DNA of 64,000 nt. Source: Nageia nagi (lineage: Eukaryota > Plantae > Pinophyta). The stretch spans positions 59,272,001 to 59,336,000 of the forward strand of contig JBITNC010000001.1 in NCBI GenBank assembly GCA_050084985.1, written 5' to 3'. The number at the start of each line of letters is the position of its first letter. The first letter of the stretch is position 1. The position numbers and the translations under genes are program-made. This document shows positions 1,639 through 53,375 of this stretch, one piece after another. A model generated the notes under the pieces. That model was not told where the DNA came from, made no database searches, and saw only the letters and a program-made list of their open reading frames with translations.

Positions 1639-1640
1639 AG

Positions 1641-20500: not shown

Positions 20501-23500
20501 AAACATGGAGAGAACTAACTTGATTTAACACCAAGACTTTAACTCTTCAGCCTAGATTAAACCCTCATTATTAATAAAACCCTAAGGTTAAATTATAACC
20601 CTTACCTTCACTCATAGTTTCTCCAAAGCTTCACTATGGCTTGCAATTTCCCCAAAATGTGAGCTCTAAGGGTATATTTATAACTTTTTAAAGGATTAGG
20701 ATTTTTAATAAAATAATAATATTTTATGTTCATGACATCTAATTATTAGCTTTCACTTAACCCTATTTGACCATGTTTCAAGATTATATTTTCTTTATGA
20801 TTATCCTTTAATTATTTTTTTTGTTAATATTAAAGGTGATTTTTAAAGAACCGATAATTATTGTTCAATTTTTGAAAGGCCCCTGATACCATTTACAATA
20901 AAAGTGGTTTCATAGTTGTCCCTCAACCTCCCTAGGGAATAAATAACAATCCCTCAACTTGTAAAGGGCCCAAACAATTCAAAACTTGGAAGTATTAGCC
21001 CATTTTTGAAATGTTATACATATCTTAAAATATACATTGAAGACCTTGTATGCTTTGAAGCTATTACAAATCCCTAAGGAAATTTGAATTTTACAACTTC
21101 TCGCTTAGATGAAACTTATGGTTGAGCCATGGAATTTTAATTTCTAGATTTCAAATATAAATTCAAAAACATGTACAGATAAGCTAAAAAGAACCTAACT
21201 ATTGCTTGCTTGAGATAGGTGAACCGATCCAATCATGTAGCATTCCAACTTCTGGTTCTAAACCAACTCCACCAACCCTCCACCAAGAACCAAAACCCCC
21301 ATAGCATCAATGAAGGAGGGGAAAAAATATCATATAACAAAAAATCCTCAAAAATATCCTTCATGAAAACTATGTGGTGAGAAAGTAATCCTATTCCCAT
21401 GGGCTCCAAACCCATCGAAACATAGAAGAAAAGCTTCCATAGATGCAATAGTTTTGGTACACAAGTGTATGAAAAATCAAAGCTTATATAGATAGCAACC
21501 ACAACCTCTACAATTATTCTCCCCATAGAAGTTAACTCCTCCCTATTTTTAAACTTAACTTAACACCCTTTAGCCAAGCTAGGCTTCAACACCTTTTTAG
21601 CCATAGGCTTAAACCACTCCTCCTCTAAGAGCGATGCCCTATCCTTTGAAGAAGGTAACAAGATGCCAATACAAAACAAATCCTCAATCTCTTTAGGTGA
21701 GAATCTTAATTCCAAAGAAAATTCCTTTGTACTTTTAGGAGCCACATCTAGATAATCATTGAATAGTGTTTCCTCTTTCATAAAAGAAAAATGAGATATG
21801 AGGGAGAATTCAAAGGCCCTCATAACCCTTGCTAGAATCAGACTACTAGCACCTTCCTCTACACATTACATGCTACCAGCCATGAATAAAACACAACCCT
21901 TAATTATTTTTATTTTATTACTTTATTTTAATTTATTATACTATATTATTATTATTAGTTTTTTTTAATTATATATTATTTCAATAAAGTTATTAATTTT
22001 ATTGATCACATTAATTAAATTAATCCTTCATCAATAATATTATTAACTTAATTAATCTTTTAATTAATTAAATTAATAGTCTACATGTAATGAAAGTGCA
22101 ATAAATTGCCTACCCCTACTACCGTTCCTGTCAACAAGTCCTTGGTAGCATTTCATAATAGATAACCAAAAGTATGAATCCTAGGAGGCTCTTTTGATCC
22201 TTGCCTCATGCAACTACATGATATAATAACTATGGTCATTAGAGGTATCTTGATTTTGGATTCTAAGATAATAACTACAACCTTATGAAATCATCTTCTT
22301 AACCACACATAAGCATTCCACCCTCATACATGTCATCTACACACATAGACATGCACACCTCGATAGTATCTTATATAAAAAATGATAGATAATATCATAT
22401 TATCATAAGAGAATTTTTCAAATCATTTTCATCATAAAAAATGTAATAAGTAAAATAAAACATCATAATGTCTTCTTATTTCACACCAAACAAATGCCAC
22501 ATAGTCCTGAATCTAGCAAGGGAATGTACAACAAGAAATTGAACTATGACATCCTCCCCTATTGGATTAACACAATTTCTTGTGTTAACTACCATAGTTT
22601 AGAGTTATCTTATTTCATTTTACGCATACAATAATGAAATAAATTTTATTATAACATAAGGTATTCATACCATAACATGATGGAACACATCACACCTTCT
22701 TCACAAGGTTTCAAATTTAAAATAAAATACCTTAGATAAATTAGGTGAAAAGTTCAAATTTTTGACTAATTTATCATAGGTTCAATAAATTCTTGTATTT
22801 CCTTCAATTCCCATGCCATCATTACTAGATTTGTATCACTAATAGAAGAATCATTTACACAATTTTTTTTTCTAACATGAATTTCTAGTTAAGCTATTCC
22901 TTTCTTTTTTCACATATCTTTTTTTATCCTAACCTAGTCCTTAAGATATCATATGAAGAGGAATTCTCATACCCTTAACCCTACTTATTTTCAAAGGGTA
23001 TTAATTCTTATCCTTTGTTATGTGCAAATTAACTAGATTGAGTTGTCTTAGATTGTTACATATATAATTAAATCTCCTAAACATAGCTCACTTAGTCCCA
23101 AATTTTACTCTAAAAGTATTCTTGGATGTAATTCTTCTTTTCCTACTATCCAACTAACTATTTTATTTTGATAGTTGAAATAATTTTTTGTTTCTTTGAA
23201 AATATTTTAATCCAAGTCGCATGTCCTTTCATAAAACTTCACAACCATTATGATCTTCTCGTATACATATTTAACCCTAACTTGATCTTCATGCTTTAAT
23301 AATTTTGAGTTCACTATGTATTTGATCCATTATGAACCATCCTTGTATTTTTCTTCAATATATCTTTCTTATCTTTCCTTTTCCTAGTTTTCATTGTTAT
23401 CTTCAAGTATTTAACTAACTTCCTCAGATGGAAAATCTCCTTTCCTTGACATGTACATTGATGGTTAGATTCCTAAAGAATATTGCAGTAGTAATAATTC

Positions 23501-26500
23501 CTTATTTTCAAAAGAATCTTCCTTGAAAAATTCCTTCCTATACTGGGTGATCATGTGGTATTAGATGCTCTTCATTTTATCATGCAATGAACTTTTAAAT
23601 TTTATCTTAAACCCTAAGTTATTCTCAACATGTTTGGCTAATACATATACTTTTTTTCTTTGAAGTGTATTTTGGAGCATGCATGTTAGCCATCACATGA
23701 ATATCATTGTGTAAACTACTAATAAACTTATGGAATTTCTTGAATTGTACTTTTTAGAGACCTCTAGAACATATTTTATTAATCTCATATATTTCCTATG
23801 ATATTTTTCAACTAGCTTGTTTCTTTTCCCAATTCTATTAATTTCATCAAACATTTCCATGATGAACTTGTTTGACACAAAATTTTTCCTAAATCTACTA
23901 AGGAAATTCTTCGATGGCACATCCTTAGTCTCCATTTCTCTATCCTCTAGAAGGTTTTCCCACTATTCTAAGGTTAAATATTCAAGTAGCATTACAACCC
24001 ACTAATCTTTTTGATAGGTTTATAGATTTCTAGTCTCAAAATGGGTCTTATGTTCTTTCATCCAAGCTTTGACAATGTCACCTAATTTTTCCCCTATAAA
24101 TTCCATGGCTGAAATTATTTTCTTGAGATTATGGATCATATTCATTAGTTCATAACTTTTACCATTCTTAAGTTTCTTAAAATTTTCTTACTATTGTTGA
24201 ATCATATTGAACTATATCTTAGGAATCATAATAAACCCATGATAATGGATTTTCTTTTTAAGGTCCTCCACATGTGTCTTGAATTCTTCTAAAATTCACA
24301 ACCTTTAAAAATCTAGATATTGCTTTCTTGGTTGAGTTTCCTTAAGATCATTATTCTTCAATTTTATTAATTGGTATCCTCAAGTATGGACATAACTCTT
24401 TCAATTTTTGACAAATCCATCCTTTTTATTCAAAACTAGGAGATTGATCCTTCAATTATATGTGTTTATTTTTATCAAAATATATGACTTATCCATTTCA
24501 TATCACATATGGAATAGACTTAAAAGAATCTTCCAATAAACTCAAGTTTATTAAAATACCTTATTTAAAGGTCTTATTTACATGCCATAACCATTATAAA
24601 TACATAATTATCCTCAATAAAATTATAATGACCCAAATCTTTAACCCAATATTGGATCTTCACTTTTGCACACTTCTCATAACTTAAGCATTGAGCACAA
24701 AATCATTTATTTCCTTGAAAAAATACTTATTAATATCTATATATCCTATTTTCATGAATCAATACATAATTTATTTCAAGGAAAATCCAATACATATTGG
24801 AGACCTTCAATGTTCTTGATATCTTCAGTGTTTATATTAGCACCATTTTCCTTCAACCTTTCAACAATTGTGTGAAGTTTCAATTCCTCAATGCTTAGTG
24901 GAATTCCTTATTCTGGATATGCTTTAATAGGTAGCAAGAATCTAGACTTGTACTTTATTATCTCTTTAATTTTTAACTCATTGTATAATTTAAAATGATA
25001 ATCTACATTCCATTCTAGGAGATATTCATCAAATATGACTTCTTTAACTTAGATATTGTGGCTTACTTCATCCCTTGATTCATAGCCTATATTTTGCAAA
25101 TATATGTTTCTTCAAGCAAGTTGATTTCTTGTTTCTTCTTTAGGAGGAAAGTGTCTTCCCCTATATATTCTTGACATTCTTGCTCTTGTTCTTCCAACAT
25201 ATGGAAAATCTCTTATTCTTGAGGCAAAACTCCATTGACCAATGTTGATGAAATATCTCGTTGATTTTATGGTTCATAAAGTTAACTTTTTTAACAAATC
25301 ACCATGATAGTTTACTTGACTATTCATATTACCTTATTCTTTACAAGAATAATAAAAATAAATTACAATTAACACTTGAAATCATAAATATTTATTCTTA
25401 ATAATGCTCTATTTCTTATTTAAGAAAAAATAAATCTTAAGATATCTCATAACCTTATCAAGGTTATCCATTCTTAATTTTCTTATAATTACTAGTAAAA
25501 TCTTTTAACCAAGATGTTTATAATAGCTACTTTCATAACCTCTCTAGGGTTACAATTTTTTTATCAAACATATTTGGCAATAAGTATGAAGGTTTTTTCA
25601 AAAACATCCCTTAGAACTAGTCTAATTAAGAGAATTATTCTTTCATACCAACTTATTAAGGTTTCATCCTTTTTTGAGTGGCTAGCTCCTTAGATGTATA
25701 TTGGTAGATCTTACCAATAGTTTCCTCTTCTTGAGGGTACCACATACCTTATTATAGTTTTTTACCATCATCATGTATAGGTAGGTTAATTACTTTAGGA
25801 TTCTTCCTTTCCCTAACAAGACTATGTTTGATAGTCATACCTCTCTTATATTTTTGTGTAGATTCATATTTGTTAGGGTTTTCATGGAATACTCTTCCCA
25901 AGGTTATAAATTTAATTTGATGACTTAATACTAAGTCATGTTATGTATTTTAAGGATACTACTACATTTGATAAGTTACCTTGGTATTACTAAGATGTCA
26001 TCTTTTCCCAATAATAAAAGTTATTGGTTAAAAAATTCATATTACTTATGTAAACCTACACACCTAGGATCTAATACTGAATGTTAGGACTTGATTTTTA
26101 AACCTTAAAAATTGGCTTTGAACTTAATTCCAATCCCAAAAAACACATATGAAATGAGCATAATTATTTTTTGGACCAATATACAAATACACATTTACAT
26201 TCAATAATAAAATTTTATGGGCTACTTTTGAAGCATGAGATTGAGATCACATAATGGTTCCAAGTATTGTCATTCTTGAGTCATGATCTCATAATTAGAT
26301 GATCACACCATTTATCTCTTGATATTTAACCTTCTCATTAAATATCCTAAATGTCTTTCCAAGAATTTTCATCTTAGGAGATAATAGCCTTCTAGTCTCC
26401 TTGTCAACCCATCTTGAAGCATTATTTCTTACTGATGGTATCTTAACTTACCTGGATCATAACCATGATCAAGTTTGGAAATTTAAGTACTTTAGGGTCC

Positions 26501-28743
26501 TTCATGACCAATCTTGATAATTCTTCAACTATCCTTCTTGATAATCCTTATTCTCATCTTGAAGTCATGTGTGTTGAGAATGCCTTGAATTATCCTTATT
26601 TGACAATTCCTTGTTCTATTGAGATCTTCTTGAATTATCCTAACTTGATAATTCCTTGATCTCCATACAATTTTCTCAAATTATCCTAGCTTTATAATTC
26701 TTAGACCTCATAAAAGTATGCTCAAGACTTACCTAGGTTTTATCTAAGGTTTAATACCATTTCCTATGATTAATGACATATAAGGTCATGAATATATTTT
26801 CCATCCTATTTGGTTATGCTTAAATCAATATGCGTATTATAGATCAAAACACCAAATATGGTTTTCTTTATCTATACAATTATTCATACCTTTAATAAAC
26901 ATTCATCCCTTCTACTTATGCAATAATGAATTATATTTATATATCACCATTAATGTGTATTGCATAATAATAATGAAATGTTTCATCATCCATGCAATTC
27001 ATCCAATAACATATAATAATATTCTTTTTAATGTCATTCAATAGCCATCATGGTTATCATCACATAATGTCATCTAACCTTCAATTTCCCAGTAAATCAA
27101 TTCATATGAATATAATTCCAAGCTCTTATTATTGAATAGGAAAATCATCAAATATTTATCATATAAATAATGGATCTTGAATACCATTAACATATCATCC
27201 ATATATCATAAGGGTATTCCATACATGGATCCAACTTACACATTGTATATATGTAAAATACATCATAATTTCTCATTGTCTATTAATGTATAGTAACACA
27301 AGATTATACAAATAATCTTGTTATTACATTAATACATATCCAAAATCTTCATACAAGCATCCTTTATTAAATATGAAGTTACATCCTCAATTAATTAAAC
27401 TAGCAAGAATCCCTCATAAGCATGAACTAACCTTCCTTGGACATGTTAGCTCATAGTGGTTATTTGGATCATGAAAAATTTTATTTATTATGCATCTACT
27501 CATGCAACAATCTCAAAAGATGCCTAGAATGCTACTTCATTCCTAGGTTACTCAATTCACTTAGAAAACAAACTTTTCAATCTTAGAAAAAAGTAATAAG
27601 AGAAATCAATCAATCAAATATAGATTCTTAAAAGTGTTAAAATCACTTCATAACTAGATAATAAAAATAGTCTCTCTTGTCCTCAATTTTAAGATCCCAT
27701 TTTAAAATTGATGACCTAAGATCACATAATTTAAATTTATTCCCTTTGTTCAATTTTTTCATTCTAATTGCTAAGGAATAATAATAACATAATATTTCAA
27801 TAATTAACTAAATTATCAAAATAATTCAACACTACTTAATTCCTCATACGAAAATTCATATTGTACATACTATAGAATAGAGCATTCATAATAGTTATTC
27901 TTTAGAATATAACTACTTATGCAAAATTCTCTCAAATAGCAAACCTACTTCACAACATCTAGGACTACTCAACTCATCTTAAGAAAAATGGCAGTTTTAC
28001 TATCTTAAAACAAAGTGAAATAAATACCTTTAATTCTTAATTTCAAAGAATAAATTTCTCTTTTCTCAAATGACTATGCCATTGGTTCCATAAATTTGAG
28101 AATGTCATAGTATTTTGGCCATAATTTTTTACTTGGATATTCATTTAAGCCTTTTTTTAAATGTGCAAATTTTGAAGATCTACAACTTTGTAATGTCTCC
28201 TTTAGAATACAACATGTTCAAGGCTACAAATGTCATATTACAGATTGAAATTTCATTTTAATGTTTGACTAGATTTTCAACAATATGGCTTCAAACATTA
28301 ATTATCTAAGAATTTTATCAATTTAATAATTTAATTCACTTTCATCCTAAAATCATGGATTCCAAAAAAAATCAATCAATCAAGCCAAACTAAAACACAT
28401 ACAATTAGATTTTTTTTAAGGACACACTATGATTGAATATTTTACAATTATTTCTAAAATCACTATGATCTTGTGGATTCTAGTTAGATTTTTCTGAAAC
28501 CATAAATTAAACCTTACCAATTAGAATTTAGATTTAAACTAAATTAAAATTTGTAACCATATCTATTTTTAAATTAGGTATATCAAAACTCAGTAGAAAT
28601 CTATAGCAAGGGTTTTTTATCACAACCAAAATAATCAAGAATAAATCAAATCAATAAATCTTTTCACAAATCTTCTCTATTTTCATAGATCAAATTTTTA
28701 GAAATAATTTCTTAGAATCAATTACTCAAACTTTATTGTGGAC
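17593..28743 (-). mobile_element. Gag-only non-autonomous LTR element C: 3' LTR 17593-~22551, internal 22552-26067, 5' LTR from 26082 interrupted by Copia at ~28744
   Basis: 17593-~20420 aligns with 26082-~28743 (both start TGTTAGGAC); decayed PBS GGATCTAATACTG at ~26067-26080; PPT junction ATGACA|TCCTCCCCT at 22551. Confidence 0.8.
23600..24130 (-). pseudogene. Retrotransposon gag remnant (element C)
   Basis: ORF 23693-23935 NFLSRFRKNFVSNKFIMEMFDEINRIGKRNKLVEKYHRKYMRLIKYV fits the Retrotrans_gag pattern; upstream EFIGEKLGDIVKAWMKE. Confidence 0.65.
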
Positions 28744-28959
28744 TACAAGGCTATGATCAAACTCTATGATTAATTATTAAATCAGAATGGTGTAATATAT
28801 ATATTTGATCATTATAGTTTTATAACTATAATACAGTTGAATAACTATGCAACTAATTTAACTTCCTAATGACACATGTAAATGCATGACTTATTATAAT
28901 ATAAATTTAAATTAATAACCCATGAGGATTATAACTTAATATTCCCCCCTTAATCCATA

Positions 28960-31047
28960 GGGGTAGGTTGAATTCCAAGCATCTGCCTAAACTTCTCTCT
29001 TCAAAGCACCTTGATGAAGTTGTCTATATTTTGTTCTTTAGTGGAACAATATTTCAACCAAATTATCTTTACCTCTACATGATGTCAAATCAAATGATAC
29101 TTCATGTTGATGTGCTTAGTTCGATCATGAAACTTTGGATTCTTTTCCAATTTCATGGAAGAATTATTATCAATTAGAAGCAAAGTGGGAAAACCTTGTT
29201 TCTCTTGTAAATATTCAAGAAGTTTCTTGAGCCACATAATCTCCTTTTTGCCTCTATAGCAGCCAAATACTTTGCCTCGGTAGTAGAATTTGTTGGCATA
29301 GATTATTTTCATGATCTCCAAGAAACAGCTACTAGTCTAAGATTCATAAGATAACCTAAAGTAGAAACTCCATTTTCTTTATCACCATTAAAGTATAAGT
29401 TAGAATATACAATCAATTTGAAGTCTCCTACCTTGTATTATTTGATACCAAAATATTAATTCCCCTTCAAATATCAAAGAACTCTCTTCACTGCTATCCA
29501 ATTGCCTTCACATGGTTTGTGCATAAATTGAGATATAATAGCAACCATAAATGAATTATTGGGTTTGGTAGTGGTTAGATAAATGAGATTTCCAACTAGT
29601 TTCCTATATTTTATAGAATATTGAAATTTATTCCCTTCAACTGATGTCAACTTTAAATTATATTATGTTGGAGTAGAATGTATCTTATAATCAATCATGC
29701 CAAACTTACTCAATAATTCTCCAATGTACTTTTTTTGGGAAATAAATATATATTATGATGCTTGAGTTACCTCAACACCTAAGTAATAATTAATATTCTC
29801 CATATCAATCTTTTCAAATCCCTTTTTGAAATCTTATTTCACAAATGTAATGAATCCTTCATTATTCCTTGTCATCAAAAGATCATCTACATACACCATA
29901 AGATATACAACTATTTTTCAACTTTCTTGACAAATAAAGTTGCATCATAGAGGTTAAAGTGTTGGAAATTAGTCTTAAAAATATGTTCAATAAGCTTGTC
30001 ATACCATGTGTAAGGTGCTTTCTTTACACCATACAAAGATTTTATGAGTTTACAAACCTTATATTCATATCCCTTTTCAATAAAGTTAGAAAAATAGTTG
30101 TATATCTTATGGTGTATGTAGATGATATTTTGAAAATGGGGAATAATGAAAGATTCATTACAAATCCTTCAGATTGAAGAATGTACACATTTTCCTTCAA
30201 AAAACCATTCAAAAATGTTATTTTTTCATCCATTTGATGCACTTTCCATCCATGTTGAGATGACATAACCAACAAAGAATGAATGATCACCTATTTTTCT
30301 ATAGAAGAAAATATCTCATCATAATCAATGCCTTTTTTTATACATAGCCCTTAGAAATTAGCCTTGCTTTATGTTTATCAAGTGAGTCATCTGATTTGTA
30401 CTTATTTCTATAAACCCACTTGCAACCTATTGGTTTGGTTCCATAGGGAGGATCAACCAACTTCCAAGTCCCAATCATGATTAGAGCATCATACTCTTTC
30501 CTCATGGCTTTTTTCCAAGCATCTTGGAAAGAACCTCCTTAAAGGAAGTTGGCTCAAAATCAATACAAAAATTCAATTCCATGTCAAAATAATAATCCTT
30601 ACCATCATCTAAAAAATATCAACATGAATTGAACTTAAACCTCCTACTACTCTATTTTCTTATCATGCTCAATAGGAACTCCAAGTTCTTATCTTCTTGA
30701 ATTCATCAAGATGAACATTTTCAAGTGTTTTTGATGCCCATTTTGGAATATTCTATGATGTTATTGGTTCATCACTAGGTTGATTTGGTGCTTCACTTCT
30801 ACCAAGACTCAATTTCCCAATCCCTTCAATCACATCATCTAACTAGCTCACCAATGCAAGCACTAAAGAATTGGAGAAACTATTGAAGAAGGTATCTATT
30901 CATATGAAATAAGTGGTGTAGATTACAAACTATGATCCAATATTAGTATCCCCCCTCAAATTTTGGAATCTCATAATTTTATTTAATATAAGGCTTCCCA
31001 TGGGTAAATTGGTCAAGGTGATCAAGCTACCACTTTACAACATCATT
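28960..31047 (-). pseudogene. Copia RT-RNase H plus linker
   Basis: WKKAMRKEYDAL..GTWKLVDPP..KPIGCKWVY; WKVHQMD..FLNGFLKENVY; YVDDLL; IMWLKKLL...DNNSSMKLEKNPKFHDRTKHI. Confidence 0.92.
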
Positions 31048-33789
31048 TGTAATGCTCCACCTATTCTTGACTTCACAAAACCCTAAAATTACAAACCTAT
31101 TTTTTATTATTTAATTTCAACACTCGAATGTGTAGGATGGACAAGTAATCCATATGAGCATATTAATGTTGCTAGCTAGTTAGCACTCACATGGAAAATT
31201 AGTTAAATTTAAATTAACCAACCCTAATCAAAATCCTTTTGGTGTTCACTTCTTAATGCTGATCCCATTGGAAGACACCTCATAGGTGACTCCACCATTT
31301 CTATTCACAAAATGTGCAATAGATATTCTTATCATGGCATAGTGGTTTCCTACTCATGGTCCATATCACCAAAGAGAATGCTCTTCCATAAGGTTATGCA
31401 TCTTTTTAGATGATAACCTTTGATTGACATGTGCAGATAGATTTTCCTAGGAAATCTTCATATGAAATGGGTAAGCATCATCACCTATGGAATAATCATC
31501 ATACTCCCATTTACTAAATTGCAAGTAGTATGAATACTAGTTACCTTCACCTAGTAACTATATTTTTATTGATTTCTATCCTCATCTGACAAATTATCAA
31601 GGATATGAGACACTAACTTACCCATATCTATCTGCTAGGCTCACCATGAAATTCGATAGCCTCATGCCCATATCTTGGGGAGCCATGGGTATTGGAATAA
31701 TACCCTTGAGTGGTTTGTATAGTATAATTATTTTTTAAGCAAGATTATAAAGAAAAACCATCCCCTCTAACATTCCTAGAAATAATTGATTCTCAGATCA
31801 ATTATTGGGTTTTCTAAGTTTTATGCTTGTATCGAGTAGTAGGATGTTCCTCTAATCTAATTTCTTGCAAATAAACCATTTTTTACATTAATAATTATGT
31901 TTGATAAATAAGAACAATAAATTCATCAAATGTGTACAAGATATTTCAAAACAAGCTTTTTTATGAATTCATTAAAGAATATTCAACAATACTTTACTAT
32001 AAATATCTCATATGCATGATGTGACATGCTAAATATTACTTTAAAAGTACATCACATACCAAAGAATAATAACAAGCTTTGAGATATTGCTAAATATGGC
32101 TACTTCTAACAAGGAAGTGTTGCATAGAGTATATCATACTCAAGGGGTATTCTTTTTATATATCATTTAGTGAATTTATGACAACAAAGGTTTGACTAAG
32201 TTATCTTCTATAGGATTGAGGTCTACATTATCTTCTAGGGTTTTAGCACCTTGATTAATCTTTCTTATAAGATCATATATAAGCTTTAGGTTTCATCTAA
32301 GATTGTATCAAGTCATTATTAATTTAACTACTTCAAGGTAATTCATGCAAATAGCTTCATTGTTTCTTCAATGTTTTAAATTTAAGAAATTCATATCCTT
32401 ATTGAAGGATATGATACCATTATTTCTTTAATGTTGATTTTCATTATGAGATACTTATTATTTTTATCCACATACCCTTTATTGTTTATCATAAGAGAGT
32501 TTCCTTTGTAACATTAGACTATCCATAAGTCACATTAGGATTATATCATAATCAATTCAAGTTGGGGAATGTAGAAATTATGTTTTTTACCAAATAATTA
32601 ACTTCATATTAGTATATTTAAGGTCCTTATAGTGCTGTTTATTTATCTTTCCAAAAGATTATTTGTATTCTCACAAGCCATCTAAATACATTTAGGAGTA
32701 TAACATAGGGTGAACAAATTGAACTTGAATTCTAGTTTATCATTAACACCTACTTACATTCCTTTGCAAATGACTATACAGTCAATGGGCAATGTCTTCA
32801 CTTCATACCCTAATTTGTTACATGATGATAATATTCTATAATGAGCTAGGGAACCCTTTTTATACCTCACAATATATAAGCCATTCAATTACATAAGGGT
32901 CCCCATACAACTATCAAAGAGGGTTTTTATCATATCCTTATCAAATTTATCTTATAAGGTATTCAATAGATCTTTATCCTCTTGATGTAGCTTATTGTCA
33001 TCTTCACCTTCTACATTCCTCCAAGGATCCAATATTCATTGGATATTGATACTAAGAAAGGATCTTGATTTTTGAGGATCAAGACAACTCTTTTGACCAA
33101 AATGCATCCTATATTAACTACATCATATTTCATTCCTTCACATGTAGTTTATTGACAATTCAACAATTAATACACTATTCTTGGACCTCATGAGGTTTTA
33201 TTTTATTTCTAGAACTACTTGCCTTCCTTGGTAATAGGGTAGATTTTCATATATAGTCATTTTACATACATCAAATCTACTTCAAAATAATATTATTTAC
33301 TCAAATGAACATATCACTATTCCATAAGAATCATCTTTAAAATAGTTCTAACATTATTTATCTTCAATTTGGTACTACTATTTAATTACATGATTCGTAC
33401 TCAAATATTAACATTCAATAAATTACTTTGACATAGTTGTTATTCGAAGTAATACTATTAATAAAATACCATCATCATGGTTCACCCATTATCTTATAAG
33501 TATCTATTCATACTTATAAACATTGTTTATGAGTATACATCCATTCTCAACTAAACATCATTCAATCATATTTTCACCTTTTTAAACTCTCCTAAAATTC
33601 AATATAATTTTTTTCCATTTTAAAAATTTTGTAATCCCTCTATACAAAATTATTTCAATATATTTATTGTAATCTCTTTATAAACTACAAAATATTAAAA
33701 ATAAATATTAATGGTAGCTTTGCATAGTAACTATATATAGCAAGTTTCAACCTACACACCACATGTTTTGTAGAGGTACTCATTTATTA

Positions 33790-34620
33790 GAATGGCTATG
33801 TGAATTGTTTGACAAAATGCCAATTCGAAATGTTGTCTCATGAACCATATGATTTGCAAGATATACACACAATGGTTATGGTAAAAGAACCTATAATTTG
33901 TTAGATGAAACATCGATGCAATCTCATGGTTTGCAATGATTGCGAGATATACTTAAAAGGCTTACATTAAAAAGGGTTTGCAAATTGTTTGAAAAAATAC
34001 CTCATCAAAAATTAGTTTGAAGGATCTTAATAATTATGCATTATGCACAAGATAGATACATTGGAATGGATGGTGAATTGTTTGACAAAACCACTCCAAA
34101 ATGCTGCCTCTTGAACTGTAATGATCAGATATGAATAAATGGATAAGTTGGAAAAGTATGCAAATTTATTTTATGGGATACCTCATCGGAATGTCGCCTC
34201 ATGGATCGTAGATTGATAAAATTGATATAATAAAAAATCCTATGAATGGTTGATAAAGTGTTTCATCATAATTCACTATCAAGGGTCAAAATGATGTACA
34301 ATAAGAATATGTTGGAGAAATCTATGAATGGTTTAATATAATGCGCTATTGAAAGGTAGTCTCATGGTTCGCATTGCACAAAGAGACATTATGAGAGGGC
34401 CTAAAAATGGCTTAACAAAAAGGTTTTACCAAAATGAACTTTCATGGGTTGTAATGATCATAGATAAGAACAAATGAATGTGTTAGAAAGGCCTACGATT
34501 GGTTTGGCCACATGCTTCATTGAAATGTAGTATGAAGGATGTTAGTGTTCATACGATATGCAAAAGTATGGATAAAAAATATCTACAAAGGATTTGGTAA
34601 AAGCCTCTTTGAAATGTTGA
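33790..34620 (+). pseudogene. Degenerate PLS-class PPR motif array inside the Tekay 3' LTR
   Basis: CELFDKMPIRNVVS*..ARYTHNG; DAISWFAMIARY; KLFEKIPHQ; LFYGIPHRNVASW; YEWFNIMRY*KVVSWFA; YQNELSWVVMII; ~80-93-nt spacing. Confidence 0.88.
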
Positions 34621-36744
34621 GCCAAAATAGAGGAGAGCCAATGGTCGAGAAGCAATCAAGATTAAACTCAAAAAAATATTTTTTCATAGTAAAGCTTTCA
34701 AAAAAAAACTTCCCTAGTACACATCACCCTTTCAAATAGTCTTAAGTGAAATCAAACAAAATGGAAGGGTACCAAAAGATGTCTCAATGTAATTTTTGTT
34801 TTTAATTTTTCTTTCAAGTACTATGTTCAAATAAATGGTTGACATGAATTCACAAGATCATGAATTTTTCTTTAATTTAATCTTTCCTATCTCTTCTTTA
34901 AATACTTGCATACATGTATGGATATGTAATGCTACCCTACTCTATACTTATACTAAAATCCAAAAATATTCGCCCTTTTTTTTGAATGTATCTTACAATA
35001 CTTATATCCCATATCGATGATAATTTGTTGTTCTCTATGCTATATCTAGGCATCACCATCTCTTGTCAAGTATTAGGGCACATTCACTATGCAACCCACC
35101 TTACTTGCATGTGGTATCTCATGATGAGCATGCTCTAATTTTATTTGGAGACCTCTATCACATGAGTGTATTATCTCACATAAAGAACTTATTCTATCTT
35201 TATTCTTATCTAGGTTTGATAGTTTCTTTTGAATGCCAAATCTTAAAATCCATGATTTCTAGACCTAATTATTTCGATAGATTACTAAAATACTTGTATC
35301 ATCTTTTTACACATGTATTGTAACTGGTGTTCCTTAAATGCTAGAAAGGGTTGTTTAGATCCACTTCCCATATCAATTTCTTAGGTCTATCCTCATATGA
35401 AGTACTTATTCATATACTTATTTAAAATCCTAATAATTGAGTAAGTTAGGTTTGGTATTTATTAAATGTAAGACATGAACATGACCCATTATTATTTCAA
35501 TAGTATAGTGCAAACCATATATACAATGAACACATTGAAATATTTGTATTGAAATAAAAGTATAAATATAGGATTAAACCATACTTAGTGTGATGCTTGC
35601 CATGACAATATCTTAGGTCAACTTTAATCCTAATTTTTAAGTTCTTACATGCATCATAAAATGTTTTCACTTAGACTCACTTAATAAAAATTATTTTGGT
35701 AATAATTATACACTTTGACATCCTTATTATTTGTTAGGTGGGAGATATCTACACCTAGGATAAAATTTATTCTTTTAATGATCAAATGGTCACTTTCTAT
35801 GGTAAGTCCATTTATAACAATGATGTATATATATTTGTACCATAATTTGGTGTAAAATAAAACAAAATCTAGTTAATGTAACTTGCCATGACATGTCGGC
35901 TACATTCCTTGATATCCCTTTTGATGTTCGATTACGTACAATTCTTCTTATGCCCTATCTTACAAATAAAATATTAACTTCAAAAGTAATTTGTCAATGG
36001 TTTCATACAATACATCAATTATGTTTATTACATCCAATGAATGCAATCGTACGAAAAGTCTTCATCTTCATCCATGGAATCTTCATGCCATCTTCTTCTC
36101 GTGATCATCCCAAAGTTACAATAATAAGTGGTTGTGAGTACTAGGAGAGTTTTTTAGCATTATGAGGATCAAGAAAGCTCTTTGTATGACCATTTTGACT
36201 TCTACTATGCACTATGCACAACTTCATTCAATAAATTCTGTACACCATTTAATTAAGTTATACTCTATATATGATCTCAGGAGGTTTTATGCCTTGTAGA
36301 AGCTACCTCTCTTCCTTGACCATAGAGTATAATTTTATTCAAAAAGGGAAATACTAACATTCAAGTAAGGTCCAAATAAAAGTCGATCCTTATTGAAAAA
36401 CCTTGTTAACTATTAATTGTAGGGGCATATTCAATAAATACCATGATCTAAATAATAACAAGCTTAAATATCTTTAGTAACCTTCTCATTGTTAAGGCCT
36501 TTACAATAAATACCATGTTCCATGCATCCTCATAATTCTACTTTTATTAACAAATTCAAGTCTAATTAACTTCATAGGGTCTATGTTTTCAACCTCCTTT
36601 ATACCATAAATGGTTTAATTTAAATAATAATATCTTCCAAGACAATTTGTTAAGTCCTTATTGAATCACTTTAAGTTACTGTAAATAAACATTATCTAAG
36701 TCTAGATTAAAATCTAAATAAAGACTTATAGGAGTGTCAATCAG

Positions 36745-38230
36745 GTCTATGGAAGGTACTGTGAAATTTTTGATGAAATGCTCCATCGATATGCCACCAA
36801 AATGGATATTCTGGAAGGGTCGATGAAGGATCACAACATAGATATGAGAATGCTTCCTCTTATATTATCAAAATGGTACACATGCAGATGCGTTTAAATG
36901 GAAACTGTGAGCTATTTAGCAAAGTGCCTCATTGAGGTGGAGTCTCGTACTAGAAAAGTTTGTAGGACTTGCCCCAAAAGAAAGACAAGTTGTTACAAAG
37001 TATGCACAGGATGGATGTGTAAAAAGGGTATGTAAATCATTTGCCATTTTGCCTTACCAAGTGTAAATGGAGACCAAGAAATTGTTTGACAAAAAGCTTC
37101 CTCCATTAATAATCTCATGGAGTTCCTTACATAGGATAACAATAAGTTATACGAGGAAATGTCTCATTAAATGTAGTGTAATGTTTTGCAATGTTCGCTC
37201 GATTTGCACATACTGGATACGTTATAGAGGCCTGTTCATTGTATTGATAAATTTCCTTATTGGCGCTCATTGGATGCAACCTGAGAAATAGAAGACTTGC
37301 AATTGGTTTGACAGGATACCTCATCAATATGTGGCATTATGGGCAGCACAAGCTAGATATGTTGAGAGGTTAAAAAATAAGAAAATTGATGGACGTATCC
37401 CTGATATGTCGTCCCATGTATCAAACGATCGGTAAATCGCTTGACAAAAAAAATTAACTCAATAAATGAAGTCAACAATGATTGTGTTGAAGGAGATCAA
37501 TGGATTTGCCTGGTCTAATGCCTTGTTGACATGAATATCAACACGAATGGAAGGGTTCTATGAGTCATTTGCAATCTATTGAATGCAATGGGCAGTGGAT
37601 AGAAAAACTTATGTATTGATTGACAAGAAGTAGTCTCATGGATGGCATGGAACACATTCAGGATCTCTCGCCAAAATGCCTCACCGAAACCAATCTTACA
37701 TGGGTCGTAGGTTAGGCACAAAATGGGTAAATATTATCAAATGCAAAGTAGGATGAATATACCTATGTCTTATTTGAAATAATATTTTATCTAAAATGAA
37801 GACCCATCGCCAGTATTGATCATAGGATACGTACAAGAACGGGTCCTTTGAACGCCTTCAGTTATTGTCCATAGAACATGCACTAATCTGATACATGGGT
37901 GGGAGAATACAAAAGCTTATTAAGTGCCTTATTGAGATGGAATCTCATGAAATGCAAATGATCACACTTAAAGGACTGGTACATGGAGGTATCAATACCT
38001 CATCAATATGCCTTCTCATTAAGTGAAAAGGTCATCGAAAGTACGCCAAACAGACAGGTTTGGGAATCCCATAAATTATCCCACCTTTACCCATCAAAAT
38101 TCAACCTTATGGAATGCCAATGAGTGTAGGGTGATCATGCCAGAATGGCCTAATAGGATGCCTTATTGATTTGCAATATTTTTGGATAAAAAAAATCATA
38201 GAGATGCACAAAATGGATACCTTAAAAGTG
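36745..38230 (+). pseudogene. Degenerate PLS-class PPR motif array inside the element D 3' LTR
   Basis: CEIFDEMLHR; CELFSKVPH*GGVS; ORF 37067 KKLFDKKLPPLIISW; CNWFDRIPHQYVALW; QEVVSW; AKMPHRN..VG*AQNG; LIIGYVQ; HQNSTLWNA. Confidence 0.85.
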
Positions 38231-41200
38231 AAGACATGGCACAAAAAAATAGAGGTATTGACTAGTAATTTCCCTACTTTGGCATGTCTTTCAAAATGTT
38301 ACCCGTGACTTCCTATGCAAGTAAGATAAGTAATTTAAAATACAATGAATGTCCTTTCACTACTACAAATAATTTAACATACATGAATTGTACACTACAC
38401 TCACATGCAATATTAAGCAAGTAAAAATAAATATTATACTATTCAAAGGATACTACTCATGAAATGGTAGTAAGAAATTTTCATTTAAGCATTCAAATAG
38501 GCTATACATCCTTTAATACATTTAGAAATTTCCAAATAAGCTTCAAATTTTAATTAATCATTTTAGTATTAGAGACTAAAATAAAAGAAAGGCACCTAGA
38601 ATTTAAGAAGGTGCTTCCTCCTCTAGAGGACTTTAGACCAAGATTTTGAGAAAGAGGGAGAAGAGAATAATATGATGCCTAATTCCGAAGGGTTTCCATT
38701 TATTTATAGTTTGAAGGGTAGTCTAATCCATCCAAAACAAATACTATTTATCCAAGTTAGCTACTTTATATGTAAGGTGTGGGGATTTTATTTTTTTATG
38801 AGAAGGTTTGGGACAATTTTGTTTTTAAGTTTTCATGACTTCCAGAAATAATTTCACACCTAAAATTAGGAAATAAAAGATTTTATCAATCATGTTACAC
38901 CTAATTAAAGGAGACAAGTTGTGTGGGGTATCTTTCTCAATTATTTTGGCAAGGCACTAAAATAGCCTTATAACCCCCATGAAATGACAAGAAATCCTTT
39001 AACCTTAGAGTTTATCTTTCTCCTAAATTTATTTTTGTAAAACAAAAAAAAGTTCATTAGTAAAAATTTAAAATTTGAATGGGTGGAATATTCCTCATTT
39101 TAAAAAGTGCCAATTTTATTTTTCCAAACAAATTCAAGAATTCATACCATATTTTAACATAATATTTACCTGTGGAGGCCACTCATCCTACAAGTTAAAT
39201 TTTGTTAGTGCACATTCACACATACACAAGCATCACACACAACATAGGGATCGAATATCATACAAAATTGTTATGTAGCTATATGATCTATGAAAGGTCT
39301 TTATGATTCTATCAGCAATTGAATGTCAATCATTTCTTTCCTCTTACCAATCTATTCCTATAACCACTTATCTTGGTTCCCTATTATCTCTATTCTGATT
39401 CTCTCATTAAATCAACCCTTAACCTTTGTTACACAAAATCTTGAACCCAACATCAATTTGACACAACATAGCATATAAATAGATATCATTAGTCATCTCA
39501 TGATCTCATTCACATTAAAATTATTGAAGGTAGTCAAGAAATAATGAATTTGAATAAAGAATTCAAAATTATGAATGAAACAGGGTCATCACATACTTCC
39601 CCCCATAGGAACAACACAATCCTTTATGTTTCTTTCTTCTCTATTCATCAATTTACCTAAAAACACATATTATGAAATAATATAGTGCATCAAATTCTTA
39701 CATCGGATTCAATATTTTCAAAGGACATTAAGATGATCCAACTTGAGTCTATGTGAATGACCAGTTAACCCTCAAGTGGGTTAAGTTCATCAATAACCAA
39801 AATTGATCAACCCCTTCATTTCTAGTGTTCACCACTATAATCCTATTCAGAGTAGGTTGAATGTATTAACGTAATCCCACCATTACTATTTGCTAACCAA
39901 TCAACTACAAAATCCCATTTGATCACAGCAATAGATTTTGGTTTCATCTTGGGACCCATATCACCCATGATGGCACCAATCCAAAATAAGAGCATACAAC
40001 GTATGAGAATATCATCCATAATACTATGGGTAAAGCGCATCACCCCTAGAATAACTATCATTTTCAATCATAAAACCATGATAAAAAATACCTAAAACTT
40101 ATATCCTCACCTAATATAGTACATATTTCTTGGTTACTACCCCTTATCTTGAGGTAAGATGACTAACCTTCCCATATCTATTAGTTAGTATCCCTAGTGG
40201 TCCGAGCTTACATGCCCATATCTTGGGAATCCAAATGTCTTTTGGAAGTAACAACTTCCTTATCATGGTGTTATAAAAAATCATCATTTTTCATCAATGT
40301 TATTCAATAAATATAGCAAATATATGAATTAGTCATAAACATTATAGCTAATCTATCAATTACAATAGATCCTCACTCGATATTTCAAAATATAAAGATT
40401 ATCAATAGACAATTTTTCATTCTTAGGCATGAAACCATCATGTTCAAAAATTTATGTAATATCCATATCTTCATGTGAGATTTACTCACTATCATCATTA
40501 GGCCCTATATTTTTGGATATAATAGGCATAAAATTGGATTAATAATCCTTAAAAATCTTGATTTATATCCTTCTACTTAGTACTTAGGTTTGAATTAAAG
40601 AAAATCATCAGTTCTACTTCTACAAAGAGTTATCCTTTCAGGAGAATATTAATAATAAATGTTAATCACATCTTTATTATTGATTTAACACATTAACAAA
40701 GTATTCATCATTAAGGGATTCATCCCTATTTATGCTTACCATTGAAAGTCCAATATTACCTGAACTTCCTTCATTAGAGTTGATCAATGTATCTTGGAAA
40801 AAATTCATCCCAAACTGAGTTAAAAGTTTTTGTATCCTCGAGTTTTCTCCTTCCAAAACTCAAACTCCTTAAGAGAAGTGTTAGTACTTATTAACCCTAT
40901 TTCTTGAATAATTTGAACTTGTTCCTAAATTTCCTATTTTTGGATAAGAAACCTTTCATTTTCTATGGCCAATTGATTTTGGTCGATCATTAATATGACA
41001 TTTTCTTGATTCAAAGTGTCTCTCTGAATCCTAAGAGATTCTCTTTGTTCTCCTTCAATGATCAATTGTTATCATAAGAAAGCATTTTCATTGTCAAACA
41101 ATATTTTTCTTATTAAAATTTCTTAGTGATACATTCTTATAAATATTCTACTCATATGAAGTACTATTGGGTTCCCTAATGATTTATCATCATTTTTCTC

Positions 41201-44200
41201 ACTAAAATTTATAGCTCAAACAAGAAAGGTAAGTAAGCAACCATTGAATTTTAGAATATTTCTCTAATGTTCACACATCATATTTTGAGAGTACAAACAC
41301 AAACATTCACAAATAGGCTAATCATTTATTTAAATCAATCAATAGTTTAGGAAAAAAGGAAATTTCCCCCATTTAGGGTTCATCTTCCTTATTATCCTTA
41401 TCATTAGGTGATCTTGATGAGTTCAAAGAGACCCTAATACCATGTTGAAGTAACAATTTTTCATACCTTCCATCCCACATTCTCTATTTTTCTATTTCCT
41501 ATAAGGAGGCACTAAGATGTACGAATGCTTGTTCTTGCACACTTTGAATTTGTTGGATCAATTTACACTCCTCATTGATGAGGTCAATCATCAACTTATT
41601 ACTCTTCGAGGATATGAAATTCCAAATTCTTTCACATTCTTCTCTTTTCCTTCAAAGATGCCTTATTTATTCTTTGGTGTTCTTCAACTATTATCATAAA
41701 ATTCATTCTCCATGATAGCTTGCATATTTTCCATTATTCATTGTTAGTTATTTGACCCTATTTTTATATAAGTGGTGTAATTTCAAGAAGTTTTGACTAG
41801 TTGGATAGGATGTGGTATCATACATGCAAACTTAAATTGCAATATCATATTGCAATTTTATCAACCATAATATCCCTTAATAATATCTTTAGTATCTTAT
41901 TAGATGCTCCTTCGAGGGTACAAATACTCTCCATACATAATTTCTTGGTGGATATTTAGTGTTGGAGTCTTTTTCATCCATCCATAAGAATATTTTCATA
42001 CACCACTTGTAATTAGTATGTATTCCTTCCTAGATAGGTAATAAATTTATAGGTAGAGTTTCTATTCTATCTACACATTTTGATAACAAATCATGGTAAT
42101 TCATAAAATAAATCATTATGTAGCACATCTCTTTGTTCTCCCAAATGGGATAGAGGAAAATATTATCTATCATGGGGTACATACTTTCTTGTCGCAACAT
42201 TCCTTAGAGGTGATGGATTTCCTCCTTCGTTAGGATTTAGCTATTTTTCCTCTATATCCTTTGAATAGTTTTGGCTATTGCATGATCACTCAACTTAAAA
42301 TTTATGAGCATTTAGGCTTGTTCATTCAATTATTTTTATATCCTAATCTAACTTGGAGAGTTATTCTACATATTTCGTATAATCCAGTTCTGGTGAGACT
42401 TGTAGCATACATGGGTCCTTCCTTAATATCTCCAAGGGAGAGTTTGGTACCTCTTACTATCTCATGGATGCTTTGGAAACAAAATTTGCCTTAGGATACT
42501 ACCTATTCCTTCACAATTTGTAAGGGATAGGGAAATTGTATTCTTTCCCACCTATTCGCATCCTTCTACTATTTTTGAGCTATTTCTCGAAACATGATTA
42601 CTTTTATTTCTAATCCTCCTACATATAATACATCAGATCAAGCTTAAAAATCCTTCAATTCTAATTTATTTGTTAATATATTTTACTATGTTGACTCAAA
42701 GTTATTCGACTAGGATAACTATCCATCAATTTTTTTGATGGAATCTAATAATGATGTAAAGAAATCCTAATCTTTTGTAAGCTATCCACTTTGCTTATTA
42801 GTGGGAATTGTTTATGTACTTAGTAATGAAATAAAAAGATACTTATATTTCTCATAAAATTTACATTGTAAAAGGATTTGGTTTTATTTAGTGCATATAA
42901 AAAATTCTTCCTTTCCATTCATTCTTAATCTCTAACTAGACTCTCTTCCTCATTGATCATCTCCTTGGGTTCCTCATCGGATAATGAAATCTTATTGCTA
43001 TTTTCTCATAGATATTTAATGATTTCTAGAGTGAGGGTAGGTATATTTCTACCATATAAAAGAGAAAAATCCCTATTTGCACTAGGTTTATTGATCATCT
43101 AGTAATTTCCCTTAACTTGAGTGGTTACTTCTTGTACCTTTTTCTTTCTGTAGATCTAGAAAGCTTTGCATGGTGATATCATCATTCATTTCTACAATAT
43201 TGTTAGAGATTTATTCTTTTATTTTTTTTGGTGATTATTCCCTTTTCTAGATCTCTTTCTTCCACCATATTGGAATAAATAACATATGCATTTAAGATGT
43301 ATTCTAAATTTCTAAGTTATATTGTCATACTCAAGCAAAATAAAAATTTTATTGATAACATTTTTCATTACATAACATAGTAATACATTTTATTGGGTCT
43401 ATTACATTATATATTCTAGCCCTTTGATGAAACATAATTCTTTTATATGTACATTACTACCCATTGAATTCAACATTTTAGTCACCATCCATAGATTCAT
43501 CTCATGGTTTAGGCCTAATAGCAGGTGGAGTTGTGATCTGAATAGGGTTTTCTTCTACAAGAGGAAGAATTGCACTTTTAAAAATTATAATATCTTTGAT
43601 TTTATAATATCTTTGATTTCACCTTCTCCATATAAATTTTCATGGAGAGCTCTTATTTGACTTATAATTTCTTCTATAAAGACAACTCTTGTGTGAACCT
43701 ATTTTGTTGAATCCTGATTTATCTTAGCTAGGTATTCATTCATCCTAAAGATTTGGTTCCTATTTTGTTCTGCTAGGGAAACATGTCTCTCTCTAGTTCT
43801 TTTATATAGTTCCTGAGAGATTTAATTTGTTGTAATTCATCTATTTCCCTCTCAAGCCTCATAGTATCATTTAATGAAGTATCACATAATCCATAGAATA
43901 AAAGTGCATCATCAATGTTGGATAGGATATCAAATTCTATAGGCAACCAAGTCCAATACCATCCCATCTTGATATGTTCTAAAGTTTCTTACAAGATGAA
44001 AAATAATAAGTTAGGCGTATTTCTTGTGCACTACTTCACCCTAGTTCCTAGTAGACACTTGCTTTGATACCAATGTAACACTACCCTACTCTATACTTAT
44101 AATAAACCCCAAAATTTTCAACCCTTTTTTTTAAATGTATCCTGTGATACTTATATCCCACATTGATGATAATTTATTGTTCTATATGCTATATCTAGGC

Positions 44201-45824
44201 ATCACCATCTCTTTTCAAGTATTAGGATACATTCACCACAAAATACCACCTCACTTGTGTGTCATATCTCATGATGAGTGTGCTCTAATTTTATTTGGCA
44301 GACTCTATCACATGAGTGTATTATATCACATAAAGAACTTATTCTATCTTTATTCTAATCTAGGTTATATAGTTTTTTTTTGGATACTAAATCTTAAAAT
44401 CTATGATTGCTAGACCTAATTATTTCGATAGATTACTAAAATACTTGTATCATCTTTTTACACATGTATTGTAAGTGATATGCCTTAAATGCTAGAAAGG
44501 TTTATTTAGATTCACTTTCCATATCAATATCTTAGGTCTATCCTCATATGAACTACTTATTCCTATACTTATTTAAAGTCTTAATAATTTATTGAGTTAG
44601 GTTTGATATTTATTGAATGTAATACATGAACACACCCCAATATTATTTCAATAGTCTAATGCAAATCATATATACAATAAACACATTGAAATATTTGTAT
44701 TCAAACAAAAGTATAAATATAGGATTAAAACATACTTAGAGTGATGCTTTTTTCACTTAGACTCACTAAAAATTCTTTTGGTAATAATTATACACTTTGA
44801 CATCCTTATTATTTGTTAGGTGGGATATATCTACACCTAGGACATAATACATTCCTTCAATGATCTAGTGGTCACTTTCTATGGTAATTCCACTTATACA
44901 AATTATGTATATATATTTCTACTATAATTTGGTGCAACAAAAATAAAATCTAGTTAATGTAACTTGCCATAACATGTTGGCTACCTTCCTTGATATCCCT
45001 TTTGATTTTGGTTACATAAAATTCTTCTTATGTCCTATCTTACAACTAAAATATTGACTTCAAAAGTAATTTTTCAATGGTTTCATACAATACATCAATT
45101 GTGTATATTACATCCAATGAGTGCAATGGTATGGAAAGTCTTCATCTTCATCCATCATATCTTCATGCCATCTTCTTCTCATGATCATCCCAAGGTTCCA
45201 AGAATAAGTGGTCATGAGTACTAGGAGGTATTTTTTAGCATTATAAGGATCAATACAACTCTTTGTATGACCACAATGACTTCTACTATGCACTATGCAT
45301 AAATTCATCCAATAAATTTCGTACACCATTTGATTAAGTTATACTCTATATATGATCTCAGGAGGTTTTACACCTTGTAGAAGCTACCTCCCTTTCTTGA
45401 ACATAGAGTATAATTTTATTCAAAAATGAAATACTAACATTCAACTAAGATCCAAACAAAAGTCTATCCTTATTGAAACACCTTATTAACTATTAATTAT
45501 AGGGGTATATTCAATAAATACCATGATCTAAATAGTAACAAGCTTAAATATCTTAAGCTTCTCATTTTAAAGGCATTTCCAATAAATACCATGTTCCATG
45601 CATCCTCATAATTTTACTTTTATTAACAAATCCAAGTCTAATTAACTTCATAGGGTTTATGCTTTCAACCTCCTTTATACCACAAATGGTTTAATTTTAA
45701 TAATAATATCTTCCAAGATAATTTGTTAAGTCCTTATTGAGTCACTTTAAGTTACTATAAATAAACATTACCTAAGTCTAGATTAAAATATAAATAAACA
45801 CTTAGAGGATAATCATTAATCGGT

Positions 45825-47290
45825 CTATGGAAAGATCATCTGAAATGTTTGATGAAATGCTCCATCAATATATCACAAAAATGGATATGCTAAAAGGGTT
45901 AATGAAGGGTCACAACATGGATATGAGAATGCCTCCTCTTATATTATTGAAATGGTGCATAGGAAGATGCATTTAAAAGGAAACTATGAGCTATTTAGCA
46001 AAGTACCTCATTGAGATGGAGTCTTGTGCTAGAAAATTTTGTAGGACTCACCCAAAAAAAAAAGACATGTTTTTACCAAGTATGCATAGTATGGATATGT
46101 AAAAAGGGATTTTTATCATTTAACATATTTCCTTTCAAGTGTAAATGGATACCAATGAATCTCCATTAATAATCTCATGGAGTTCCTTACATAGGATATC
46201 CAAAAATTATATGAAGGAATGCCTCATTAAATGTAGTGTAATGTTCTATAATGTTCACCCAATTTGCATACATTGAACACATTATATAGGCATATTCATT
46301 GTATTAAAAACTTTCCTTGTTAGTTCTCATCAGATACAATCTAAGAAATAGAAGACTTGCAATTGGTTTGATAGGGTACCTCATCAATATGTGGCCTTAT
46401 GGGTAGCATAAGCTAGATACATTGAGAGGTAAAAAATAATAAAAATGATAGATAGCTCCCTAATATGTATTCCCATGTATCAAATTATAGGTGAATCTTT
46501 TGAAAAAATAATACCTCACTAAATGAAGTCAATAATGATTGTGTTGAAGGACATTGATGGATTTGCTCGATGTAATACCTCATCGACATGAATATCAATG
46601 TGGATGGAAGGGTTCTATGAGTCATTTGTAGTCTATTGAATTCTATGCACACTAGAAAAAAAAATTATGTATTAATTGATAAGAAGTAGTATCATGGATG
46701 GTATTGAAAACATTGAGGATCACTCTCCAAAATGCCTTAGCAAAACCAATCTTACATGGGTTGCAGGTTAGGCATAGAATGGGTAAATCTTATCAAATAC
46801 GAAGTAGGATGAAGAGAATTATGCATTATTTAAAATAATTCTTTTTCTAAAATGAAGACCCATCACCAATATTGATCATAGTATATGCACAAGAATGGGT
46901 CCTTTGAACACTCTTAGTTATTTTCCATAGAACATTAACCAATCTATGTGTGGATAGGAGAAACAAAATCCTATCAATTGCCTTATTGAGATGGAGTCTC
47001 ATGAAATGCAAATGAATGTAATCAAGAACTAGCATATGAAGGCATCAATACCTCATTGATCTGCCTTCTCATTAAGTAAAAAAGGTCATTGAAAGTATGC
47101 CAAACAAATGGGTTTGGGATTCTAAAAAATTATCCAAATCTTTACCCATCAAAATGCAACCTTATGGAATGCCAATGAGAGTAGGGTTATCATTATATAA
47201 TAGCCTAATAGTATACCTTATTGATTTGTAATCTTTTTTGATACAAAAATAATCACATAATATGCACAAAATAGATTCCTTAGGAGTGAA
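45825..47290 (+). pseudogene. PPR motif array copy in the element D 5' LTR
   Basis: Aligns with 36745-38230 and shows more CpG decay. Confidence 0.82.
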
Positions 47291-52730: not shown

Positions 52731-52738
52731 TTAACTTT

Positions 52739-53370
52739 TGTTAGAATTTTAACCTTTACTTGGTTAGTTTAGTGGGAATAATTAAATTATTCTCATTTAC
52801 TTAGGTTAGAGGTAAATTATTTTATCCTCTATTTTTTATATATGTATTTGTGGTGTAAGGAAATATTCCAAAGGAATCCCTACATCTATCTTTTACTCTT
52901 ATGGACTTATAATTCTTCTCATAAATATGTGACAATAATTCTTTTTAATTCCTCATTTAAGATGATTATATAATGAGAGTTACACTAATTTGTACTCCTT
53001 CTATAATGGGTGTTATTTTATAACTCCCACCTTTTGTATTGCAAGGTGAAAAGTTTAGATTATAGGAGTTACTTAGTAACTCCCTCTCTTCACCTCTATT
53101 TATTGAGGTGCCTTCTCCTCTCTTCATCATCTTGGAATTCTCCTAAATCTTTGTAATGAGCTCTTTATAGCTCTCTTGTATTCTTGTTTGTTCTTTTTCC
53201 ATTCTTGCAATGTAGGAGGTTTTTTTCTTTATTTTTCCCCCTTAACAAATTTCTTGTCTCTTTGCATTTTGTGATTTCTCACTCATGATGCTATAATTTC
53301 TAACCTTGCATATTTTTTACTTTCAAGTTTTAGTAATAATTTTATTTTGATCCTCCTAAAATTTCTAACA
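52739..53370. mobile_element. Solo LTR (632 bp) in the Tekay PR-RT linker
   Basis: TGTTAGA...TCTAACA termini; perfect TSD ACTTT (52734-52738 and 53371-53375). Confidence 0.88.
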
Positions 53371-53375
53371 ACTTT

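Follow-up and report, generated by a model that had tools for sequence, protein, structure and literature searches.

How does an array of motifs typical of PLS-class PPR proteins come to lie within the long terminal repeats (LTRs) of a retrotransposon, and is it more than a passenger there? This question is raised by a locus in the 64,000-nt stretch of Nageia nagi DNA analysed here (the window), which is AT-rich, CG-depleted, and filled with plant repeats. The original prediction, made from the letters alone, had placed such an array in one LTR of a Tekay-type chromovirus, with a counterpart in the sister LTR.

A decayed PPR motif array in both LTRs of a chromovirus

Within the 3′ LTR of the element that we call A, a frameshift-aware circular profile, built from 389 gymnosperm host units, resolved nine S/SS-type motifs (SS being the name of a PPR motif type) and the start of a tenth on the plus strand at 33795-34618, each motif being 31 residues long (array A1). 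The predicted run of about nine consecutive motifs was thus recovered, as was the predicted spacing of ~80-93 nt, the measured intervals being 93, 87, 93, 87, 82, 82, 79, 92, and 90 nt (range 79-93 nt). The peptides quoted with that prediction were also located, namely ELFDKMPIRNVVS* at 33802, DAISWFAMIARY at 33915, LFYGIPHRNVASW in the unit read from 34163, KVVSWFA at 34353, and, in the sister LTR, DLVSWFAMIIGYTQKG at 59058. A length of 31 residues is that of the S motifs of PPR proteins (PMC12733224).

The profile scored 220 on A1, against maxima of 24.6-26.8 in 12 shuffles per region, 14-21 for reversed and reverse-complemented sequence, and at most 27.3 for 34 of 36 other tiles of the window, the remaining two overlapping further arrays described below (A2 and B2). 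When one A1 frame (33790-34140, stops written as X) was compared using phmmer, only PPR proteins were matched among the best 16 of 149 candidates (best E-value 3.6e-19), and a comparison with 1.84 billion proteins gave 522 matches at E ≤ 0.001, these E-values being inflated by summing over repeats. The profile score and the PPR-only matches bear out the S/SS-type PLS-PPR identity of the array, which is real and beyond chance. A search with PPR HMMs, proposed as a check, had a split outcome: the frameshift-aware profile was positive (220 vs. ≤27), while the Pfam PPR models (PF01535, PF13041) yielded zero families above threshold on nine unshifted frames and five single units. This negative result arises because the intact motif content of each frame does not go much beyond about one motif; an intact relative (P0187) gave a strong Pfam PPR match.

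No open reading frame spans the motifs of A1, nearly every unit having stops and frameshifts, several of which are common to the sister LTRs. The array is purely S/SS-type, with no P or L motifs and no E/E+ or DYW domain found in its flanks by Pfam and tblastn, and the top 14 frameshift-aware protein alignments extend at most over 33607-34531. Its nucleotide periodicity is weak. Around the array, a search for terminal inverted repeats, the mark of Pack-type DNA transposons, returned only short A/T-rich pairs at chance level; its borders were inspected for a poly(A) or target duplication by eye only.

The element carrying A1 is in minus-strand orientation, and a nested element (B) separates its 3′ LTR, ~5.06 kb in total, into a U5-side part (31048-34923) and a U3-side part (48652-49838, with a TATA-like box at 48974-48981). 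The internal region (49839-55288) has a polypurine tract (PPT) at about 49839-49857 and a primer-binding site (PBS) at 55276-55288, which we take to be of the Met type from its motif, and is followed by the 5′ LTR (55290-63247; TATA-like box at 62331), itself interrupted at 55562-56447 and 59212-61154. The two LTRs are 86.8% identical (K2P 0.146), and the target site duplication (TSD) is decayed, with three of five bases matching and two C/T changes. The internal region contains decayed gag, protease, RT, RNase H, and integrase sequences and a chromodomain-like stretch, so that LTRs, PBS, PPT, TSD, and the order gag-PR-RT-RH-INT of a Ty3/gypsy chromovirus were all found. By identity, the closest RT (64-68%) is that of a PITA-labelled pine protein, presumably from loblolly pine. 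At the end of the integrase, this chromodomain-like stretch matched Pfam Chromo at E 0.036, under the curated cut-off, and aligned with the chromodomain region of protein P0411 at E 7e-7. KRLR stands at the place corresponding to the Tekay chromodomain motif (K/R)-X-(L/T)-R (PMC3350952), and a second motif, EEXTWEXE, is partly kept; the KRLR motif supports the Tekay-type call.

Both interruptions of the 5′ LTR are insertions of other sequences. The one at 55562-56447 is a solo LTR with TG...CA ends and an exact 5-bp TSD; its CG observed/expected ratio is 0.77, so it is younger or unmethylated. The one at 59212-61154 (plus strand, 1943 bp) carries an A-tail and a ~15-bp duplicated target, from which we infer LINE-type retroposition; coding-like stretches are present on its plus strand, and Pfam found no match in its plus-strand frames.

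This later 1943-bp insertion splits the sister array, A2, into two plus-strand parts (58910-59211 and 61155-61696), which together score 180. Of five A1 stop positions tested, three hold a stop in A2 as well, and both LTRs have shortened units 4-6 (A1/A2: 87/86, 82/85, and 82/82 nt). Similarly, in the two arrays of the nested element B (B1 and B2, below), 14 of 15 unit intervals are equal within 3 nt, yet 11 of 15 fall outside 92-94 nt. Since these breaks are common to sister LTRs, the progenitor elements carried non-coding arrays, i.e., the array was already broken at the time of transposition. As both LTRs of a single chromovirus insertion contain it, the array was part of the element when A transposed, as had been proposed, and the PBS, PPT, decayed TSD, gag-pol remnants, and shared breaks all uphold this. 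The accompanying statement that the family copies host PPR sequence needs amendment: both LTRs do carry the array, but it is not confined to one family, element B having it too. In A, the array (plus strand) is antisense to the element (minus strand).

These observations leave almost no room for a 93-bp tandem repeat native to the LTR with a chance likeness to PPR motifs, or for a PPR pseudogene inserted into one LTR afterwards. The negative Pfam search and the weak nucleotide periodicity would fit such origins, but array scores of 119-220 against controls of ≤27, and the corresponding position of the array in both LTRs of two insertions, would not. Both candidates are refuted by the profile scores, the PPR-only matches, and the breaks common to the sisters.

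Element B, host relatives, and the number of captures

Element B, also on the minus strand, consists of a 3′ LTR (34925-39593; TATA-like box at 38701), a 4.5-kb internal region with PBS and PPT (39594-44073), and a 5′ LTR (44074-48650). Its 4.6-kb LTRs are 87.5% identical (K2P 0.138), and its decayed TSD agrees with the empty site in A2. No Pfam family was detected in three minus-strand frames of the interior, nor was there a tblastn match from 14 gag-pol proteins, and B is likely a large non-autonomous element, whose LTR ends are shared with A. Both of its LTRs hold arrays that the original prediction did not include. B1, in the 3′ LTR (36738-38262, plus strand, score 119), has ~16 units and is longer and more decayed than A1, while B2, in the 5′ LTR (45818-47293, plus strand), reaches 35 with its best piece alone but shows ~83% identity to B1 and agrees with it in unit lengths. 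These arrays are antisense to B, the same orientation as in A. All four A and B LTRs in the window therefore carry an array, and the frameshift-aware profile found none in the LTRs of a third element (C) or in a tandem repeat at 1-3654.

The LTRs of A and B are distant relatives. Their whole-length alignment is uninformative (68% identity vs. 64% for a shuffle), and local blocks were used instead. A common U3 block of ~800 bp (64% identity) ends at the TATA-like box in the same place in both, and a second homologous block of 235 bp on the far side of the array scores 31; the highest of 100 local shuffles reached 21, as did a comparison with the LTR of element C. In both elements, the array lies between these blocks and starts ~440-625 nt downstream of the TATA-like box. 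The arrays also share a residue that is rare in host motifs: in a frameshift-permitting alignment, on which this count rests, histidine occupies motif column 8 in 4 of the 9 units of A1 and 7 of the 12 that could be scored in B1, compared with 79 of 2404 host units (p = 0.001 for A1 and 2e-6 for B1, assuming a 6% background). Conversely, array lengths differ (9 units in A vs. ~16 in B, the longest host run seen being 13), and no collinear unit-to-unit match between A and B arrays was found in a comparison in which B-B similarity is near noise and the host DNA is not traceable to gymnosperm loci. The pairing of units 1 and 4, and of 3 and 9, in A only hints at a duplication of three units.

Orientation, position, flanking blocks, and histidine thus favour one ancestral capture, while the length difference and the missing collinear unit matches make repeated capture possible, and we rate the former as clearly the likelier of the two. 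Independent captures of PPR fragments by A and B into the same part of the LTR might be expected given that PLS-PPR genes are numerous, mostly intronless, and often retroposed, and given that gene capture is very common in gymnosperms (PMC13477047). Beyond the differing lengths and non-collinear units, a further point in this direction is the depth of array-like pieces in three of three public sequencing runs, far above that of the flanks (21-130 vs. 0.4-14), although depth is a poor measure here. Independent capture is still the less likely explanation for two arrays that agree in orientation, in position between homologous blocks, in their pure S/SS type, and in the rare histidine.

Among the best 20 of 123 proteins matched by the array, all are gymnosperm PLS-PPRs (from Ginkgo or Cryptomeria), which, like the pine RT, points to a gymnosperm as the likely host. 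The search for the closest host PPR gene was thereby answered at the level of gene type but not of an individual donor, no single protein standing out among the top 14 (scores 178-198). Of 59 gymnosperm proteins examined, 15 have runs of 9-12 consecutive 31-residue units, so one gene could have supplied the A array. The donor was presumably an SS-rich gene of the At4g02750-like kind: PLS-PPRs of this kind, such as Ginkgo Gb_29028 (P0187) and Gb_04659 (P0021), have the same consensus as the array and runs of up to 12 31-residue motifs. In contrast to these proteins, the LTR array has no detected P/L triplets, no E or DYW domain, and no open frame.

Spread of the array and its CG retention

Taken together, these results probably reflect a single capture of a piece of a host PLS-PPR gene into an LTR of the common ancestor of A and B, which has since been carried along as a broken, non-coding passenger. 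Capture would have occurred at the DNA level, through repair of a break or through the insertion of a retrocopy into a master LTR, and some units would later have been duplicated inside the LTR. The antisense orientation points to such a DNA-level event or retrocopy rather than a switch of template to PPR mRNA, from which a sense insert would be expected. From its location downstream of the TATA-like box, the array is predicted to lie in R/U5, which reverse transcription would copy into both LTRs in every round. Sequence internal to an LTR is doubled to both ends at each reverse transcription, and a fragment in this position is therefore amplified without any function. At a conifer substitution rate near 2e-9 per site per year, the LTR divergences of 0.14-0.15 would mean ages of tens of millions of years, and the PPR capture is older than the insertions of A and B.

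One feature of the arrays is unaccounted for by pure passenger status. Divergence between sister arrays exceeds that of the rest of the LTR (15.6 vs. 12.7%, and 16.6 vs. 10.6%), and this excess is one-sided, the copies in 3′ LTRs keeping CG and those in 5′ LTRs having lost it. At discordant CG sites within arrays, it is the 3′ copy that kept CG in 24 of 28 cases (p = 1.8e-4), compared with 12 of 19 outside the arrays, and CHG sites in B are skewed likewise (16 vs. 2, with the 3′ array retaining). However, only 2.1 kb separates the two 3′ arrays, and the intervening DNA shows a skew as well (6 vs. 1), so that a local patch is the simpler reading: the region around ~33.8-38.3 kb, inside nested retrotransposons, was probably a long-lived patch of low methylation.

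The alternative is that the array was kept because it is useful to the element, either as gene-like sequence downstream of the promoter that lowers silencing, or through an antisense transcript whose small RNAs would cross-react with PPR genes, compelling the host to moderate its silencing. An epigenetic-conflict model of this type has been published (bioRxiv 10.1101/777037), and both the retention of the array in two families whose LTRs are just ~64% alike in their best blocks and the CG and CHG retained by the 3′ arrays would be consistent with it. Yet the CGs were lost from the arrays of the 5′ LTRs, i.e., those at the working promoter, the arrays diverge faster rather than slower than the remaining LTR, and a single low-methylation patch accounts for the CG pattern. 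In Platycladus, moreover, methylation is no lower in TEs that carry captured fragments (PMC13477047). Usefulness to the element is accordingly an unlikely explanation. The same low likelihood applies to its broader form, in which an old gymnosperm Tekay lineage and its non-autonomous partners would have kept the antisense PPR array as a working part of the LTR, serving as a methylation shield or a source of small RNAs against RNA-editing genes. The presence of arrays in sister LTRs and in a second family allows an epigenetic-conflict model to be tested at matched sites (array vs. flank, 5′ vs. 3′ LTR).

Known systems, copies elsewhere, and the rest of the window

Captures of this general kind have precedents. 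Gymnosperm TEs, including Ty3/Gypsy LTR elements, hold on average ~400,000 captured gene fragments per genome (PMC13477047), and this Platycladus survey, like A and B, deals with TEs that contain decayed host coding sequence; PPR is absent from its main text and two supplement files, where fragments within the LTR itself were not met either. In rice and sorghum, the domains that LTR elements have captured include PPR (PMC3726574), and PPR retrogenes with LTR flanks have been described (PMC13386178). As presented in the available text of these sources, the PPR sequences moved by LTR retrotransposons are annotated genes that were captured or LTR-flanked, whereas A and B contain a broken antisense array within both LTRs. 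Cassandra (bioRxiv 10.1101/2023.07.14.548913) resembles A and B in that its LTR contains sequence of host origin, in Cassandra throughout the lineage, but this is reported to be a conserved functional 5S promoter, whereas the A/B array is of protein-coding origin, decayed, and putative in any role. Foreign sequence in a retrotransposon is also described for BARE-2 and Veju, both with abnormal template switching, and for Bs1 of maize (PMC13317346), and in BARE-2 it lies in the LTR; the BARE-2 insert came from another retrotransposon, however, and an antisense PPR array would fit poorly with a switch onto mRNA. No report of PPR arrays within LTRs was found in the literature, as judged by titles and the openings of abstracts, with most subscription papers outside the coverage. 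PPR capture by LTR elements and gene capture by gymnosperm TEs are already known; an LTR with a built-in PPR array would appear to be new.

The position within the LTR has consequences of its own, since sequence placed there is doubled per insertion and persists in solo LTRs. A lineage carrying such an array would scatter PPR-like fragments over a giga-genome, inflating counts of PPR pseudogenes and of captures, and a young capture may once have supplied antisense RNA against RNA-editing genes. If the array is a mere passenger, it is a modest example of known gene capture; if the functional reading were true, it would stand beside Cassandra as a counterpart derived from a protein gene.

Copies outside the window were sought in public sequence data. 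Three sequencing runs contain a small fraction of the A LTR and, at 80% identity, cover 30, 30, and 28 of its 30 bins; no RNA run is among those listed, so these runs are uninformative on expression. Partial contigs were obtained in two of the three (X1 and X2), each with one contig over ~200 nt of units 4-5 at ~85% identity. Both contigs reproduce the shortened array length within 2 nt, which would not be expected of an intact gene. Several joints in the run contigs skip or reorder units within the array, and in three pieces between joints, inspection by eye showed PPR-like sequence carrying in-frame stops or deletions, which suggests further decayed arrays in the genomes behind these runs. 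No contig joining the array to an LTR flank was present among the 24 of 9342 pieces listed. Viral contigs gave zero pattern matches and no RT relative. Metagenome contigs gave 24 pattern matches, 23 of them within open PPR frames that are long or truncated by the contig, and one in a short broken frame; none of the 24 is a copy of the LTR, and none is LTR-like outside the array. The lone short broken frame (65 aa; L018:1813-1847) has no similarity to the LTR flanks.

Several other repeats were observed in the window. Element C (17593-28742), used as a control above, is a third LTR element with LTRs of ~2.7 kb that are 85% identical and free of any PPR array, and its sole coding remnant is gag-like, near 23768-24103. 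Element A was inserted into an RT/RNase H remnant on the minus strand (28760-31040), which we take to be Copia-type and which contains a 74-bp inverted repeat at 29846-30162. Gypsy integrase remnants are found at 4318-4799 and RT-like remnants at 12779-14194, and the tandem direct repeat at 1-3654 has a period of ~1940-2020 bp and 77-82% identity. Finally, a relatively CG-rich stretch at 7980-8137, which may be a MITE or a small-RNA precursor, forms a strong hairpin, with 67-bp arms that are 96% complementary and separated by 24 nt.
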